The notes under the pieces were generated by a model. It made no database searches and was not told the DNA's origin. It was given only the letters and a program-made list of their open reading frames with translations. Of a stretch of 31,154 nt of DNA, positions 3,080 to 24,934 are shown one piece after another. Where the stretch lies: the NCBI GenBank assembly GCA_046759365.1, contig JBHICB010000001.1, forward strand, positions 1-31,154, read 5' to 3'. Position 1 is the stretch's first letter. Each line of letters begins with the position of its first letter. The translations under genes and the position numbers were made by a program. This DNA is from Candidatus Hydrothermarchaeales archaeon (GTDB lineage Archaea > Hydrothermarchaeota > Hydrothermarchaeia > Hydrothermarchaeales > SZUA-236).

Positions 3080-3403
3080 AAGGGAAAATCGTTCTCCTCC
3101 CTTTTCCTTTCACAGACTTATCCGCCTCAAAGTATTCCGGCGCTCGTACTTTACGAAGATACGAGGGACGTGATCGTTGCTTTTATATCTTCGAGAATAC
3201 CCTCGACACTTGGAGAGACGGATGTACTTATAGGAGAGGACCATAGAGAATTCAAAAAAACTGGACTAAAAACTTCGTCAATTATAAAATTAAACAAAAT
3301 AGCAACAATACTGAAAGACTTAGTAATTGGGGAACTAGGAGAAGTCGGCCCATCTTTAAAAGAAGAGACAAACAACAAACTAAAAAGAATTCTTAGTTTA
3401 TGA
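3076..3403 (+). pseudogene. PemK/MazF-family toxin, frameshifted at 3133-3136
   Basis: MKGKIVLLPFPFTDLSASK, then 4 nt (TATT), then another frame PALVLYEDTRDVIVAFISS...TGLKTSSIIKLNKIATI. The ORF track shows only the 77-aa tail. Confidence 0.85.
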
Positions 3404-3606
3404 TCTTAAAGTTGAATAAGCTCCTTTTCTCAAAGCAAATAGACAAGTAGATCTTGTTGTCTCTTTAATGAGAGATAACGACCCATTACAATGTTAAAGA
3501 GGGTTGTTATGTTTTTCCAATAGTAGCCCTGGATGCTTGTTTATTAACTGGCGTCTGTAGGCTTTTTTGGAAATTTTAAAGCTGGGTAAAATTGGGATCA
3601 TGGGCA

Positions 3607-4788
3607 CTAAAGCCCTGCATCTTTTCTTAAGACATCTGCCATATCCGTTTTTTCCCAAGTAAAGTCAGGATCATCTCGGCCAAAATGGCCGTGGGCAGCC
3701 GTTTTCCTGTAGATGGGACGCTTAAGATTGAGGTGGTTTATTATGGCCCTCGGTCTTAAATCGAAGTGTTTTTTTATAAGCTCGATAATATCCTCCTCAG
3801 GTATCTTCGCAGTCCCCATGGTACTAAGATTTACAGAGATAGGCTCAGGTACGCCGATAGCATACGACAGCTGCAACTCACACCTGTCAGCCAAACCGGC
3901 GGCAACGACGTTTTTTGCAACATACCGCGCCATGTAAGAAGCAGACCTGTCCACCTTCGAAGGATCCTTACCAGAGAAAGCCCCACCGCCGTGGCTACCG
4001 CGCCCACCATAGGTGTCCACGATAATCTTCCTGCCAGTAAGCCCGGTATCACCATGGGGTCCGCCAACAACAAACCGCCCAGTCTCATTCACAAAGTATT
4101 TCGTGTTGTCATCAAGAAGCTCCGACGGTATAACGGCCTTAATCACGTGCTCTAAGACCTTCTTTTTTACATCCTCATTGGAAAGGCTGCCGTCATTCTG
4201 GGCAGCAACAATAACGGCCTCTACTCTTTTTGCCTCCATACCATGATATTCAACTGTCACCTGTGACTTTCCATCAGGTCTTAAAAATGGCAGAATGCCG
4301 TCCCTCATGCATTCAGATAGGCGCATAGTTAACTTGTGGGCAAGCGAGATCGGAAGTGGCATGAACTCGGGGGTTTCATTGGTTGCGTATCCAAACATCA
4401 ACCCTTGATCTCCAGCACCCTGCTCATGCTCATCAGTTTGATTGACACCCTGAGCGATGTCAGGAGACTGTTTATCTAGAGCTACTATGACTGCACACGA
4501 GTCGGCGTCAAACCCCCTCTCTGAATTTGTATAACCTATATCCCTTACTGTGTCCCTCACAATCTTTGGAACATCCAACTGAGCCTTTGTCGTTACCTCA
4601 CCGGCAACAAACACTACCCCAGTTGTAAGCAGGGTCTCGCAGGCCACCCTGCTATCTGGATCCTCTGCCAAGGCTGCATCCAGTACAGCATCCGATATCT
4701 GATCCGCAATCTTGTCAGGATGCCCCTCTGATACCGATTCGGAAGTGAAGAAAAAAACCCTGTCCTCCGAATAACCTGTAGTGTCCAT
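3607..4788 (-). CDS. metK: S-adenosylmethionine synthetase, bacterial/eukaryotic type
   Basis: [22 protein letters not shown] and [16 protein letters not shown] motifs. Start set at ATG 4788 behind a GGTGA RBS. Confidence 0.96.
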
Positions 4789-5941: not shown

Positions 5942-8275
5942 TCACTTCAACGTCCTCTGCCAATAGTCTTTTAGTGTCTTTAGATCAGAAGAAATTAATT
6001 GATTTTTGAAGCCAAAAATCCTGAGTTCCTCATCAGGTATCGTGGTGCCGATTTGAGCGAAAACCGTGCCCTTTAAAAGGTGTTCAAACCTATCCTGGTT
6101 ATCCTTATCAATCTCCACTAAAAATCTGCTGTTTGACTCAGAAAACAAAATATAATCCTCCCGCATCTTTGCATCGACCGAAACTTTACTCAGTCGAACA
6201 TCCACACCAATACCTCCAGAGAACGCCATCTCTGCCAAGGATACAGCCAAGCCCCCCTCAGAGAGGTCATGGCAAGACCTGATAAGTCCTTCATCAATCG
6301 CTTTTGTCAATGAATCCATGGTTGTTTTTGCTGTTTTCGCGTTTACCTTTGGCACGCTATTGCCCAGAAATCCATGGATCTTGTAATAATGAGAACCACC
6401 GAGCTCATCAAACGTCTTACCTATTATATATATGGGGTTATCCACCTCCTTTATATCCATTGAAACGCACTTTCTTACATCAGGTATTATGCCAAGGGCT
6501 GAGATGAGTAAGGTGGGGGTTATCGGTCCGATTGCAGACTCGTTGTATAGGCTATCTTTACCTGAAATAAACGGGGTGCCATATTCAATGGCTGTATCAT
6601 AGCAGGCCTGAGAAGCCCTGACCAGGGTGCCTAATCTGTCGGGCTTTTCCGGGTTCCCCCAGCAGAAGTTATCAAGTAACGCAATTCTTCGGCCTCCAAC
6701 CGCAACATTGTTCCTGATGGCCTCGTCGATGGCTGATGCAGCCATCCAGTATGCATCGATCTTGCCATATTCAGGATTAAGGCCGTTGGATATGACCACT
6801 CCTTTCCATGAATCAAAAAGGGGTTTTAGGACAGATGCATCTCCAGGACCGTCTTCGAGGACACCTTGCAGGGGTTTAAGGACGCTTGCCGCTCTCACTT
6901 CGTGATCGTAGGTCCTTATCACAGATTCCTTGCTCGCTACATTGGGAGAGGCCAGTATATCCAACAAAGAAGGTGTAAGATCTTTAGGCACCTTAAAGTC
7001 AGGTTCTGGGAATCGTTTCTTCTCCCAACTTGCTTTTCTAGTAATCTCTGGCACACCTTTGAACATGAACTCTATGTCAAGCTCTCCTACGACATCGTCT
7101 TTGAATACAAGTCTCAATGTTTTCTGGGGTATAAAGGCGCCGATGGGCGTTGCCTCTACATCTTCATCTTCAAAGATCTTTATTACACGTTCAAGGTTTT
7201 CTTTTGGTACAGAGATGAGCATCCTCTCCTGAGATTCTGACGTCCAGATCTCCCATTGCATCATATTTGGGTATTTTAACGGCACCCTGTCCAGGTGGAC
7301 TACTGCACCACAATCCGACCTCTCTGCCATCTCACCTACAGCTGAGGAAAGACCGCCCCCGCCTAGGTCGGTTATAGCCGAACCCAACACCAAATCTCTG
7401 ACCTTCAATATTCCACGCTTCATCCTTTCCTCCTGTATTGGATCGCCAATCTGCACCGCAGAGCCGGATGTCTCTTCTGACTCTTCATGCAGCTCGATGG
7501 ATGCAAAGGTCACACCGTGGATTCCATCTCTACCTGTCCTCCCACCCACCAGCAGGATTATATCTCCTGGCTTTGTGTTTTTGACAAATCTTTTCTTGGG
7601 AACGGTGCCGACAGTACCGCAGTAAACCAATGGATTGCCGGTGTAACTTTCATCGAAGAATATGGCACCATTGACGGTGGGAATGCCCATATTGTTTCCG
7701 TAACTTCCTATCCCTTTTACTACATAAGAGTAAATGAACCTCGGATGCTTGCTTCCTTGCGGCACTTTACTGTAAGGCATGTCTAAAGGCCCAAAACACA
7801 AAACGTTTGTATTCGCAATGGGCTCTCCCCAGACACCCAGTATGTCTCTTATCACACCCCCTACCCCTGTAGCTGCGCCCCCGAAAGGTTCAAGGGCAGA
7901 AGGGTGGTTGTGGGTCTCAACCTTGAATGCGACAGCTGTGTCGTCTTCAAAGTCCACAATGCCTGCATTGTCTTCAAAGACTGAGAAACACCAGCCAGGG
8001 TCAAGCTCTCTTGTAACCTTGGCAACAGTTGTTTTCAGCAGATTTTCTATTCTATCTTGTCCCATTATGATCTTACATTTGAAGGTCTTGTGAAAGCAGT
8101 GCTCCGACCAAGTCTGGGCAAGGGTTTCAAGCTCAATATCGGTGGGATTACGTCCGGCTTTTTTGTAATATCCCTTAATCTCCTGCATCTCCTCCAAGTT
8201 CAAGGAGAGTTGTCCCTCCCTGCTTATCTCCAAGAGAATATCGTCGCTTGCATCGAGGATCTCGATTTCGACCAT
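5942..8275 (-). CDS. purL: FGAM synthase synthetase subunit
   Basis: WSEHC, KVETHNHPS, DLGGGGL, SESQERM, SGKDSLYN, HDLSEGGL. Start set at ATG 8275 (TAATG overlap with purS). Confidence 0.96.
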   Translation of the reverse strand: MVEIEILDASDDILLEISREGQLSLNLEEMQEIKGYYKKAGRNPTDIELETLAQTWSEHCFHKTFKCKIIMGQDRIENLLKTTVAKVTRELDPGWCFSVFEDNAGIVDFEDDTAVAFKVETHNHPSALEPFGGAATGVGGVIRDILGVWGEPIANTNVLCFGPLDMPYSKVPQGSKHPRFIYSYVVKGIGSYGNNMGIPTVNGAIFFDESYTGNPLVYCGTVGTVPKKRFVKNTKPGDIILLVGGRTGRDGIHGVTFASIELHEESEETSGSAVQIGDPIQEERMKRGILKVRDLVLGSAITDLGGGGLSSAVGEMAERSDCGAVVHLDRVPLKYPNMMQWEIWTSESQERMLISVPKENLERVIKIFEDEDVEATPIGAFIPQKTLRLVFKDDVVGELDIEFMFKGVPEITRKASWEKKRFPEPDFKVPKDLTPSLLDILASPNVASKESVIRTYDHEVRAASVLKPLQGVLEDGPGDASVLKPLFDSWKGVVISNGLNPEYGKIDAYWMAASAIDEAIRNNVAVGGRRIALLDNFCWGNPEKPDRLGTLVRASQACYDTAIEYGTPFISGKDSLYNESAIGPITPTLLISALGIIPDVRKCVSMDIKEVDNPIYIIGKTFDELGGSHYYKIHGFLGNSVPKVNAKTAKTTMDSLTKAIDEGLIRSCHDLSEGGLAVSLAEMAFSGGIGVDVRLSKVSVDAKMREDYILFSESNSRFLVEIDKDNQDRFEHLLKGTVFAQIGTTIPDEELRIFGFKNQLISSDLKTLKDYWQRTLK

Positions 8276-8511
8276 TACCGGGACTCCTTGACCTCCGCTA
8301 TCGTGTAGTTCTGACTCACTGGATTTGCCAATAAACGCTTGCACATCTCTTCTATCTCGGCCTTTGAATAATCGCCTTCGATCCGATAGACCTTGGAGGC
8401 ATGGACACTTTTCACCTTTTCAAATCCCAGAGTTTTAAGGCCTTTTAGCGTTGATTCCCCTTCTGTGTCTTGAACTCCTGGCTTGTAACCGATTCTGACT
8501 TCCCACAGCAT
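8275..8511 (-). CDS. purS: FGAM synthase PurS subunit
   Basis: KPGVQDTEG...LLANPVSQNY. ATG 8511 follows a GGTGA RBS. Confidence 0.93.
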   Translation of the reverse strand: MLWEVRIGYKPGVQDTEGESTLKGLKTLGFEKVKSVHASKVYRIEGDYSKAEIEEMCKRLLANPVSQNYTIAEVKESR

Positions 8512-21541: not shown

Positions 21542-22471
21542 TTAGAACACTATCTCTCCATCTGCAGCATAGATTATGCCTGCAGGGTCATAGTCTGTGA
21601 GTCTTGCCGTAATCATAATGGCGTCATTTTTATTGATATTTACGAGTTTTCCTCTTTGATCCCAATTTATCCTCGCAACGATCTCACAACCAGTGGAGTG
21701 TTCTAGCTGGAGTATATATCCCTCAGAATCCTTATTTGCGGCTACCAAAATTGCCCCTTCCCATGTAATGTATTTGTCTTTGTATGTGGAACTGAAAATG
21801 TCCTGTTTTTGAAGATCGGTATAGTTGCTGAACAATCCAAGGATCTGACACGCTTCCTCAAGACTGTTGTTTATAAAAACCTTTTCTAAAACTTGTTCTG
21901 TTGTAATGTTTTCAAGCATGGTTGTTATATTCGATTCTGTTGCATTAATTTCTTGTCTTCTGAAGTTGGATATAATGCCTGGCAGAAACACCACAGAAAG
22001 GACAGTTACAAGGAGCATGAACCCTCCAAAATCTATCATGTTTCTTGCCATTTTGTAGTCATATTTTCGAATCGCAAAATATGCAATTACTCCACCAAAA
22101 ATGTTGAAAAATAGTGGTGTAAGGTACCACCATTTTGAAGGTTTTTGTCTGCGGGCAATTCGAGGAGGTGTCTTATATGTCTCCGGCTCCTTATTAGGCC
22201 CCTTATATCTAGAAATTGTTCTCTGAGCTTTAATCTCAGATATTTTTCTTGCTATCTCCCTTTTCTTCTTTTTGAACTCTTCTTCACCAATTTCGTCCCT
22301 CTCATGGGCCTTTATTATCTCACTTAACTGCTTTTTCAATTCTTTCTGTTTCTCTCTTATGGTCTTTTTTTTGGATTTGCCGACACTTGGTTTTGTCAGC
22401 AAATTCCCACACCATACGCAGATTACGTCTCCTTCCTTGTATGCAGTTCCGCATTTCTCGCAAGTAGGCAT
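21542..22471 (-). CDS. Zinc-ribbon / SHOCT-like / TM / OB-fold-like membrane protein
   Basis: CEKC..CVWC; EIGEEEFKKKKREI; hydrophobic WWYLTPLFFNIFGGVIAYF and GFMLLVTVLSVVFLPGII. Five N-x-S/T sequons follow the last TM, then YKDKYITWEG...ITARL. Confidence 0.75.
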   Translation of the reverse strand: MPTCEKCGTAYKEGDVICVWCGNLLTKPSVGKSKKKTIREKQKELKKQLSEIIKAHERDEIGEEEFKKKKREIARKISEIKAQRTISRYKGPNKEPETYKTPPRIARRQKPSKWWYLTPLFFNIFGGVIAYFAIRKYDYKMARNMIDFGGFMLLVTVLSVVFLPGIISNFRRQEINATESNITTMLENITTEQVLEKVFINNSLEEACQILGLFSNYTDLQKQDIFSSTYKDKYITWEGAILVAANKDSEGYILQLEHSTGCEIVARINWDQRGKLVNINKNDAIMITARLTDYDPAGIIYAADGEIVF

Positions 22472-22643
22472 CGTCCCACTTTAGTCCTTTTAAATATAAA
22501 TAAAGTTGTGTCTATCTTCTTCTAATAGTGCTATAACTTTCAATTAGATCGTCTATTACATAATTTTGTTATATATAAACATCTATGAAAATGAGAATGT
22601 AGAAGAAAATGCCTTTGTATTTATTCCTATACGAATATGAGTT

Positions 22644-22667
22644 AGTAGCGGGGGGTCGATTTGAACG
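22644..22667 (-). repeat. att copy: duplicated 3' end of tRNA-iMet
   Basis: AGTAGCGGGGGGTCGATTTGAACG is identical to 24537-24560. Confidence 0.93.
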
Positions 22668-22727
22668 GCTTAAAGAGTATGGGGGGACGAATAGTGAACT
22701 TTGAAAATGTTTGCTATTTTTCTAAAT

Positions 22728-22782
22728 GTGAGCTATTTACTCACAAATAAGTTTTTATACTAAAAGTGAGCTATTTACTCAC
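22728..22782 (+). promoter_or_regulatory. Twin 17-bp pseudo-palindromic operators flanking a TATA box
   Basis: GTGAGCTATTTACTCAC at 22728-22744 and 22766-22782, with TTTTTATA at 22752-22759 between them and ATG at 22783. Confidence 0.85.
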
Positions 22783-23598
22783 ATGACACAGTGGATCCCT
22801 GAATGGCTTGCAAGAAGATACTCTGAGATGTACGTTCTGAAGAAAGAATTCGATCTACGCGAAGCAGTAGATGCATGGGGCGTAAAAGAAAGCACAACGA
22901 GGAAAATTTTAAGCGAGCTAGCTAAAAAAGGATGGATAAGAGAGATTGAAAGGGGCAAAGGTAAGAGATATATTTTAACCAGTCCTGAGGAGGCGGTCTT
23001 TAAATTTGCAACCATCTCCAAATCAAATGTACTTGATATAGCAACCAGAATCTTCCAGGAGCATAAAAATGTGCTCTTTTTCGGATCTTTGGTTACTTTG
23101 AAGTATGGACACGGCAGGCTGGAAGATTATCTTGTGGTGTTAACAAAGCCTTTTGAGCAACACCTGCTTGAGGGAAAAAAGTGGAAGGTACCGGTAGAAG
23201 TGTTGGGTCTTAGCGACACAAAGATGTTTAAAAATGCCAATCTTCTGTTGTACAAAGGTACGCGATTGAAAATAGCGTCCCTTGAGGATTCCATTGTCCT
23301 TTTTGCTTACTGCATATTCCAGAGAGGGTTGGCCCTTAGGATATCTGACTATGTAAGCTTGCTCATGGAGCCTGAGATAATAGACTGGGAATACGTTATC
23401 GAAAGGGCTAGGAAGTTCAAGGTTGAAAAGGCCCTATATCTAACTCTCAGCAGTAGCTTGGAAATAAACATTAAAAGGGAGATACTAGACAAGTTTGAAG
23501 AGATGGCCCATGGTGAACCTGAGCCTCATTTTTGGGAATCGGGGATTTCGGAAAAAGAGATAATAAACGCTTATAGGAAGGTTAGAGAATTATGGTGA
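22783..23598 (+). CDS. wHTH plus degenerate nucleotidyltransferase-like domain protein (type IV TA / AbiEi-like antitoxin candidate)
   Basis: wHTH STTRKILSELAKKGWIREIERGKGKRY. C-terminal FFGSLVTLKYGHGRLED, KIASLEDSIV and IDWEYVIERA. Confidence 0.65.
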   Translation: MTQWIPEWLARRYSEMYVLKKEFDLREAVDAWGVKESTTRKILSELAKKGWIREIERGKGKRYILTSPEEAVFKFATISKSNVLDIATRIFQEHKNVLFFGSLVTLKYGHGRLEDYLVVLTKPFEQHLLEGKKWKVPVEVLGLSDTKMFKNANLLLYKGTRLKIASLEDSIVLFAYCIFQRGLALRISDYVSLLMEPEIIDWEYVIERARKFKVEKALYLTLSSSLEINIKREILDKFEEMAHGEPEPHFWESGISEKEIINAYRKVRELW

Positions 23599-23602
23599 AG
23601 AC

Positions 23603-23662
23603 ATGATGAAAGAAAAAATTCAAAAGGCCCTAACCAGGTTAAACGATGTTCTCAAGGAGTAA
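23603..23662 (+). pseudogene. 19-codon stub of a probable partner gene
   Basis: A GGTGA RBS overlaps the upstream stop, then MMKEKIQKALTRLNDVLKE* (amphipathic helix). Multiple stops follow. Confidence 0.45.
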
Positions 23663-23702
23663 AATGAGTAGGTATGAAAACTCATATTTTCTGTTATAAT
23701 AA

Positions 23703-24089
23703 CTAATCTTTGGCTAGATCCTCTATGGCCCGTCTAATCCTTTCCAGAAGTCTATCTGCATCATGGATTATATCCTCTGCTTCTTCTTCTGTGAATTCAT
23801 ACCCTATCCCGTAGTCCGCTCGCTCCCTGCTTTCCCTTGCTGTGCTTATGATCTTGACGTAGTAATCCTCAACCACACCTTTCTTTACAAACTCCAGTCC
23901 AAACTGGGCAATTACTCCCTTGTGAGTTTTTGGAAAGATGTTTTTGGTGCTGAGCAGGGCTCTTGCAGAATAGTGCATGCTATAGTAGGCCCTGCTTATG
24001 GCGTCGCCATACTCTCCTTTTTCATAAAGGATCATTGCGGACCTCAATTTAGATTCTGCTTCCTCTAGAAGAAGATGGGCTTCATCCAA
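23703..24089 (-). CDS. HEPN domain protein (UPF0332/COG1895-like)
   Basis: AISRAYYSM, PKTHKG, RERADY. Start probably TTG 24089, overlapping the MNT stop. Confidence 0.92.
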   Translation of the reverse strand: MDEAHLLLEEAESKLRSAMILYEKGEYGDAISRAYYSMHYSARALLSTKNIFPKTHKGVIAQFGLEFVKKGVVEDYYVKIISTARESRERADYGIGYEFTEEEAEDIIHDADRLLERIRRAIEDLAKD

Positions 24090-24405
24090 TAGCCACACCC
24101 TCTCTGGTAATGTTCTGATAAAATCCTGTGTTTATTTTCTTCATGAATTCGTACTCTTCTGTTGATATCGCTTTCGGCGAGATATAAACCCCCTTATCTA
24201 GCAATATATCAACGGCTATCCCAGAGAGGTCCTTCTGCACTTTGAATCGGTCTTCCCTGGTAATAACAAGCAGATCTATGTCGCTTTCCTCATTATAATC
24301 CTCCCGGGCATGGCTACCAAATAAGATTATCTCTTCTATTTTGTCACCGTATTTTTCCTTGACATTCTTTACAAATTCTTCTGTTACTTTTTTTTGCAGA
24401 TCCAT
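24082..24405 (-). CDS. Minimal nucleotidyltransferase (MNT)
   Basis: LFGSHAREDYNEESDIDLLV (GS-x10-DxD). Start probably ATG 24405. Confidence 0.92.
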   Translation of the reverse strand: MDLQKKVTEEFVKNVKEKYGDKIEEIILFGSHAREDYNEESDIDLLVITREDRFKVQKDLSGIAVDILLDKGVYISPKAISTEEYEFMKKINTGFYQNITREGVAIG

Positions 24406-24538
24406 GAGGAATAATATGTGCTTATAGTATTTTATCCTTTCTTGCCATATCATAGGCTAATTTTCTGAATTTTGGTCCTGATAAAAAGCAGTAAAAGCCG
24501 AACAAGAATGTTTTATTTTCATTGTTCGACCTCTGAAG

Positions 24539-24614
24539 TAGCGGGGGGTCGATTTGAACGACCGATCTCCGGGTTATGAGCCCGGCGGGATTGACCTGGC
24601 TACCCCACCCCGCT
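24539..24614 (-). tRNA. tRNA-Met initiator (CAT)
   Basis: AGCGGGG...CCCCGCT-A with an A1-U72 pair and three G-C pairs next to loop CTCATAA. CCA is not encoded. Confidence 0.96.
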
Positions 24615-24670
24615 TCAATTCATATCGATTCCAATGTATGTGAAACAGTATTTAAGTCTTTTCCGGTGTA

Positions 24671-24745
24671 TGGGCCCGGAGGGATTCGAACCCTCGACCT
24701 TCCGGTTATCAGCCGAACGCGCTAACCATGCTGCGCCACGGGCCC
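24671..24745 (-). tRNA. tRNA-Ile (GAT)
   Basis: GGGCCCG...CTGATAA...GAGGGTTCGAATCCCTC-CGGGCCC-A. Confidence 0.96.
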
Positions 24746-24813
24746 AAAAGGAACAAAATTCCTTGGAAAGTTATTTATTTAAAACTTTCTTCATTTATAG
24801 AGATATCTTCTAT

Positions 24814-24890
24814 GGGCTCGTAGCTCAGTCTGGCAGAGCGCTGCCTTCGCAAGGCAGAGGCCCCGGGTTCAAATCCCGGCGAGTCCACCA
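24814..24890 (+). tRNA. tRNA-Ala (CGC)
   Basis: G3:U70 pair, CTGCC-TTCGCAA-GGCAG, encoded CCA. Confidence 0.96.
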
Positions 24891-24934
24891 AAGGGTTTAT
24901 AAGACCCCTAAAGTCAACTTTTTTCGGTGACTTT

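Follow-up and report, generated by a model that had tools for sequence, protein, structure and literature searches.

Gene content of the locus

In the window (the whole stretch of DNA analysed, 31,154 nucleotides from a Candidatus Hydrothermarchaeales archaeon), a pair of 24-nt direct repeats brackets a 1.9-kb segment, here called the islet, which holds an AbiEi-like gene, the relic of a toxin gene and a HEPN-MNT gene pair, and no integrase gene. The features are as follows (coordinates in the window, strand, description; L001 and L002 are the two close homologous loci):

22644..22667, no strand: left 24-nt direct repeat, a perfect copy of the tRNA-Met 3' end (100% identity with 24537-24560); putative attachment-site scar bounding the islet on the left
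22728..22744, plus: operator site 1, GTGAG-N7-CTCAC palindrome directly 5' of the BRE/TATA region; identical in L001, one spacer change in L002
22753..22760, plus: TATA-like box TTTTTATA between the operator sites, read from the sequence; identical in L001 and L002
22766..22782, plus: operator site 2, palindrome identical to site 1, over the predicted transcription start and ending one base before the ATG at 22783; kept in L001 and L002
22783..23598, plus: AbiEi-like gene, intact, 271 codons; winged helix at residues ~1-75, catalytically degenerate nucleotidyltransferase (NTase)-fold domain at ~76-271
23592..23606, plus: toxin-start relic; ATGGTGA spans the antitoxin stop, an overlap also seen in homologs, and the frame then reads MVKT-stop
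23603..23662, plus: 19-codon ORF 3' of the breakpoint, from translation; probably fortuitous
23703..24098, minus: HEPN-domain gene, 131 aa (PF05168, E 1.4e-22), inside the islet and convergent with the AbiEi-like gene
24082..24453, minus: MNT gene, 123 aa (PF01909, E 8.7e-13; PADLOC PDC-S09, E 2.7e-25), 5' of the HEPN gene
24538..24614, minus: tRNA-Met(CAT) (ARAGORN; Rfam 59.2 bits); its 3' end plus the next base (24537-24560) is the right repeat copy

The MNT and HEPN genes overlap at 24082-24098, as in a canonical HEPN-MNT module. Synteny with a genome of the same genus ends near 22520, and the same-genus contig carries no tRNA near that end; none of the relatives showed an empty integration site. 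An Rfam scan of 22400-24900 returned the tRNAs and two sub-threshold chance matches, and nothing else. The islet is probably the remnant of a tRNA-integrated element. Between the convergent genes, a terminator-like hairpin at 23665-23695 (ATGAGT-N10-ACTCAT) has a T-rich run behind it; its arms resemble operator half-sites of distant homologs (for example, L009), probably by coincidence.

A separate locus of the same genome (L029, contig C99, 1447-2408, minus strand) encodes a 131-aa protein with an RHH-like N-terminus, overlapping a 192-aa DUF6036-like NTase whose GG..R-T-T-R-D-V-D motif is intact, and a 101-aa MNT adjoins this gene pair. The C-terminal half of the 192-aa NTase matched the profile of the window protein's family (E 2.9e-6), and the locus is a candidate for another NTase toxin-antitoxin system.

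Operator sites and promoter of the AbiEi-like gene

The 17-mer GTGAGCTATTTACTCAC, a palindrome of the form GTGAG-N7-CTCAC, was found in exactly two copies in the window, identical to each other and 38 bp apart from start to start (22728-22744 and 22766-22782), against a chance expectation of 0.06 matches with up to three mismatches allowed (window shuffles). The twin sites around the TATA box had been pointed out in a preliminary description of this DNA; they are exact, are kept in L001 and L002 and are unique in the assembly, a search of all 1.5 Mb (276 contigs) giving no GTGAG-N7-CTCAC beyond these two and no occurrence of a reversed control pattern. The repeat unit around the operators is longer than the palindrome, extending over 29 nt with 90% identity (22717-22745 versus 22755-22783). 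Because the centre of the TATA-like box lies only ~26 nt 5' of the ATG, the simplest reading is that the transcript of the AbiEi-like gene would be leaderless, starting at or near the ATG at 22783.

The layout of twin palindrome, TATA box and ATG is also present in both close homologous loci. Nucleotide identity between the window and these two loci was 88-95% for positions -60 to -1, 52-56% for positions -160 to -61 and 68-73% for the coding DNA, with synonymous sites saturated (pS 0.71-0.79) and dN/dS at roughly 0.1; these alignments indicate that constraint on the promoter is much stronger than on the surrounding DNA.

Distant homologs have palindromes of their own, with arms of 5-6 bp, between a TATA-like element and the ATG. 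These read TGAGTTAATAACTCA in L008, ATGAGTAAATAACTCAT in L009 and L010, AGTATAC-N5-ATATACT in L004-L007, and TATTACTAA..TAGTAATA in L013 and L018. The single palindromes of distant homologs are located 16-37 nt 5' of the ATG, abutting it only in L013 and L018, and two copies occur only in the clade of the window. Palindrome sequences differ from clade to clade, which would follow if each protein were specific for its own promoter. The 271-aa protein is a probable autorepressor.

The 271-aa protein is a divergent relative of AbiEi

Profile searches placed the 271-aa protein only loosely. Pfam gave weak winged-helix matches (residues 20-72) and a sub-threshold match to NTP_transf_5 (E 2.6e-4, residues 150-222), while none of the Pfam AbiEi models (PF13338, PF09407, PF11459) scored above its gathering score: AbiEi_4 reached 12.7 bits against a cut-off of 25, and AbiEi_1 and AbiEi_3 gave no match. 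PADLOC matches to AbiEi were likewise weak (E 2.6e-5), and when PDB sequences were searched with profiles built from the family alignments, the matches were to winged helices only, or there were none.

The motifs FFGS..Y..R.EDYLVV, SLEDSI and DWEY..ERA are all present and are invariant across the close clade, in which G101-S102, E114-D115 and E139 do not vary. The earlier reading of these motifs as NTase-like, with EDYL at the place of DxD, was correct: the DxD position reads D115-Y-L117, the second carboxylate being replaced by Leu117, and the intact DxD/E metal-binding pair after hG[GS] that characterises active members of the Pol-beta superfamily is absent from the C-terminal domain. On the antitoxin side this motif is degenerate family-wide, reading EDYL or EDLA or having no acidic residues; members beyond the close clade have lost the acidic positions, and most members lack the motif.

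For modelling, residues 72-271 were folded alone, with 15 family members collected, which gave a model of pLDDT 85 and pTM 0.86. A Foldseek search of the PDB with this model ranked AbiEi (6y8q) first, followed by JHP933, TM1012, ANT(2''), MenT1, 5uvd and Rv2827c. The AlphaFold DB clusters that matched were NTase-family entries (TM by query 0.5-0.67, E down to 1e-7), and one entry that shares the domain is labelled 'ArsR family regulator'. The model shows the core fold common to AbiEi and Rv2827c, and by this modelling the C-terminal domain has the NTase fold but a degenerate active site, as the preliminary description had proposed. The full-length AlphaFold model (five sequences) was poor (pLDDT 63), and its matches beyond the winged helix were left out of the evidence, save that AbiEi and Rv2827c ranked first.

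A sequence link to AbiEi came from hhalign, in which a full-length alignment of 12 family members matched four canonical archaeal AbiEi proteins with a probability of 97.8% (E 7.5e-13) over 213 columns, covering both domains. In the hhalign alignment, E114-D115-Y116 of the window protein fall opposite the T-E-Q loop that canonical AbiEi of archaea carry; from hhalign and the numbering of the model, E-D-Y would putatively occupy the place of the conserved toxin-binding loop D85-E86-I87 of S. agalactiae AbiEi, which precedes the counterpart of the DxD strand.

A small NTase gene follows the antitoxin gene in relatives

Close homologs of the protein are rare: only two were found among 5.8 billion clustered proteins, P0003 (60% identity) and P0002 (66%), and an exhaustive HMMER search of 1.84 billion representatives added only two further, distant ones. 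A profile search of genome contigs with the family alignment produced no confirmed relatives, and a tblastn search of a plasmid database gave no match to the query. The host phylum is itself small, with 38 GTDB species. Among the sequencing runs listed, the one strong match to this DNA was a DNA run from a hydrothermal-vent metagenome, perhaps the source sample, and none was an RNA run.

Each of the nine other loci checked has, directly 3' of the antitoxin gene, a gene for a small NTase (181-245 aa), either adjacent to the antitoxin gene or, in most cases, overlapping its stop. The conserved downstream partner, deleted in the window, that had been anticipated from the window alone is thus present in homologs. 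The partner NTases by locus are:

L001: 214 aa (P0004)
L002: truncated, with two consecutive in-frame stops after codon 59
L004-L007: 237-245 aa
L008: 222 aa
L009: 208 aa
L013: 183 aa
L018: 181 aa

The seven partner NTases that were aligned share G32, R43, D47, D49, E136, K142, D152 and D155 without exception and have Ser or Thr at position 45, within an intact R-x-[ST]-x-D-x-D motif. The residues reported to be phosphorylated in MenT3 (S78), MenT1 (T39) and AbiEii (T65) lie in the same arrangement. Pfam assigned DUF6036 and NTP_transf_5 to five of the seven each and AbiEii to three (best E 5e-9); the DUF6036 match of P0004 scored 24.4 bits against a cut-off of 23.6. A complex prediction for L001, pairing the C-terminal domain of P0003 with P0004, scored 0.23 against a mark of 0.32 and does not enter the evidence on either side. 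Paralogy of the antitoxin domain and the toxin was not established at the sequence level: BLASTP between the window protein and the partner toxin returned no significant match, and hhalign of antitoxin C-terminal domains against toxins gave weak matches (E 0.018, probability 2.6%; E 0.002, probability 14%).

The surroundings of some of the related loci show features of their own. L001 (4043-7445) carries tandem AbiE-type modules, a canonical AbiEi (270 aa) and AbiEii (309 aa, PF08843) being followed directly by the variant pair (6001-7445; 268 aa and a 214-aa DUF6036-like NTase). In L009 (3368-5979), two short ORFs of 142 aa and 147 aa, both matching Asn_synthase, flank the pair (300 aa and 208 aa), as would be seen if an asparagine synthase gene had been split by insertion of the module. 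In L004, the pair stands between two occurrences of the same three-ORF block (167, 29 and 94 aa; 3251-4159 and 7521-8429), which suggests that ~0.9 kb was duplicated and now flanks the module. The two stops in the partner NTase of L002 (1000-1238), the locus of the closest homolog, are located on a short Logan contig and suggest an independent pseudogenisation of the toxin; given these in-frame stops, toxin decay appears to have occurred more than once in the clade of the window.

The toxin gene of the window was removed just past its start codon

In the window, the coupled NTase toxin gene of the two-gene AbiE/MenAT layout is absent, and the ATGGTGA overlap alone remains. Homology to the partner gene of the relatives stops at ~23596-23601, inside this start/stop overlap, and DNA alignment shows a 1-nt deletion relative to L001 and L002 that yields the MVKT-stop of the relic. 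Neither blastn-short nor tblastn found toxin-like sequence after the breakpoint; tblastn with the L001 toxin gave nothing in 22600-24600. No homolog of toxin P0004 or of PF08843 was found in the assembly, which is 88.6% complete, so that a toxin in the missing part is possible. The toxin gene was removed just past its start codon in this genome.

The coupled 19-codon ORF that had been noted downstream does exist at 23603-23662, and its proposed derivation from the toxin could not be demonstrated, as it has no detectable similarity to it. Because homology ends at the overlap and no toxin-like sequence follows, the ORF is not demonstrably a fragment of the partner gene. Its reading as a frameshifted toxin N-terminus was set aside as unproven, only the MVK codons aligning and nothing beyond 23596 (blastn-short, tblastn).

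Comparison with known systems

[quoted passage not shown] More recent work found that AbiEi binds no NTPs and that AbiEi and AbiEii form a heterodimer, in which the conserved D85-E86-I87 loop of AbiEi enters the active site of the toxin and leads to its auto-phosphorylation at T65; these findings were the grounds on which AbiE was reclassified as type VII (bioRxiv 10.64898/2026.01.19.700257).

The AbiEi of S. agalactiae (PDB 6Y8Q; COG5340), whose partner AbiEii is a DUF1814 NTase, has one pair of 23-bp inverted repeats, whereas the window has two direct copies of a 17-bp palindrome, 38 bp apart, around an archaeal TATA box. The window family further differs from it in its cognate toxins, which are small (181-245 aa) and DUF6036/NTP_transf_5-like, with that of the window missing, and in having no Pfam AbiEi match at threshold. 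Rv2827c (MenA4, PDB 1ZEL) and MenA3 of M. tuberculosis, which pair with MenT4 and MenT3, respectively, are bacterial, have larger DUF1814 toxins and share ~12% identity with the window protein. MenT1 (Rv0078A, PDB 8AN4/8AN5) is a small, active NTase toxin whose antitoxin, MenA1, is small and unrelated; by contrast, the window protein has no DxD and carries a DNA-binding domain.

In canonical AbiEi-AbiEii pairs of archaea, such as L001 4043-5784 and L030, AbiEi is homologous to the window protein over both domains, and one of them is located directly 5' of the variant pair in L001. Their AbiEi carries the motifs YG.TEQVP and EKT..DCLD, and their toxin has ~260-330 aa and matches PF08843, whereas the window family keeps an NTase-like G-S..D motif and has shorter partner NTases. 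The domain order seen here, with a winged helix first and an NTase-like antitoxicity domain second, is the known AbiEi/MenA architecture, and the window family is a divergent variant and not a new kind of system; the suggestion that the locus represents an undescribed system was set aside on this ground and on the hhalign match over both domains.

Proposed mechanism and alternative explanations

Taken as a whole, the observations are best explained (with a probability of about 0.78) by a highly divergent archaeal antitoxin-repressor of the AbiEi/MenA class that was orphaned after loss of its toxin. The mechanism that we infer extends to DNA binding, repression, toxin binding, phosphorylation and the target of the toxin. 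The N-terminal winged helix would bind the two identical 17-bp palindromes, and occupancy of the sites, one 5' of the BRE/TATA region and one over the start of the probably leaderless transcript, would shut the protein's own promoter. If intact relatives work like AbiEi-AbiEii, MenA3-MenT3 and MenA1-MenT1, their C-terminal domain would dock on the translationally coupled small NTase toxin of DUF6036/AbiEii/MenT type. By the same analogy, docking would neutralise the toxin, most likely via induced auto-phosphorylation of the Ser/Thr two residues before DxD. In this genome the protein is left as an orphan antitoxin, probably autoregulated, inside a decayed, tRNA-Met-integrated islet, alongside the HEPN-MNT pair.

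That the locus is a decaying relic without current function, its antitoxin and operators simply not yet eroded after the toxin was lost, appears quite unlikely. The toxin is gone, the islet measures only 1.9 kb and has no integrase, and the consecutive in-frame stops in the L002 toxin show that such modules do decay; the ORF, however, is full-length with every clade-invariant residue intact, and both operators and the TATA box are perfect, although this does not date the loss and the orphaning may be recent. It is very unlikely that the protein is a stand-alone transcription factor whose NTase-like domain senses a nucleotide or another ligand and controls its own operon, with no toxin being neutralised. 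A winged helix joined to a ligand-type domain is a common layout of regulators, and both the invariance of G101-S102, E114-D115 and E139 in the close clade and the 'ArsR family regulator' among the AlphaFold DB clusters fit such a role. However, conservation of the acidic residues does not extend to the wider family, every homolog is coupled to an NTase that bears signatures of toxin families, no further operator copy exists in the genome, and the closest solved relatives are antitoxins, of which AbiEi showed no NTP binding (bioRxiv 10.64898/2026.01.19.700257).

The absence of NTP binding by AbiEi, reported in the same study, also argues against the notion that the C-terminal domain is a still-active nucleotidyltransferase tethered to DNA by the winged helix. 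Beck et al. speculated on NTase activity of AbiEi C-terminal domains (PMC7319586), and the window protein has the NTase fold and keeps hG[GS] and one aspartate; with Leu117 in place of the second carboxylate and the motif absent from most family members, activity is extremely unlikely. Beyond the orphaned antitoxin-repressor itself, AbiEi antitoxicity domains might have arisen from a duplicated and inactivated copy of an NTase toxin, with the clade of the window as an evolutionary intermediate, a reading prompted by the clade's retention of G-S, one catalytic Asp and the C-terminal ED/DW..ER motifs common to the toxins; or orphan copies might be kept as an autoregulated 'anti-addiction' immunity against elements that carry the cognate toxin. 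Both ideas are speculative and rather doubtful.

Significance

The window itself holds an orphan antitoxin alone, which is no working system and reveals no new mechanism. The family to which it belongs extends the AbiE/MenAT group of NTase toxin-antitoxin and abortive-infection systems to a little-studied archaeal phylum of hydrothermal vents, as a branch too divergent for the present Pfam AbiEi models in which an AbiEi-type antitoxin is paired with small DUF6036/MenT1-like NTases. More of the NTase signature is kept in this branch than in known AbiEi, which bears on the evolution of these antitoxins, and the very well-conserved layout of operators and TATA box would offer a clean case for studying how a toxin-antitoxin regulator represses a leaderless promoter in archaea.
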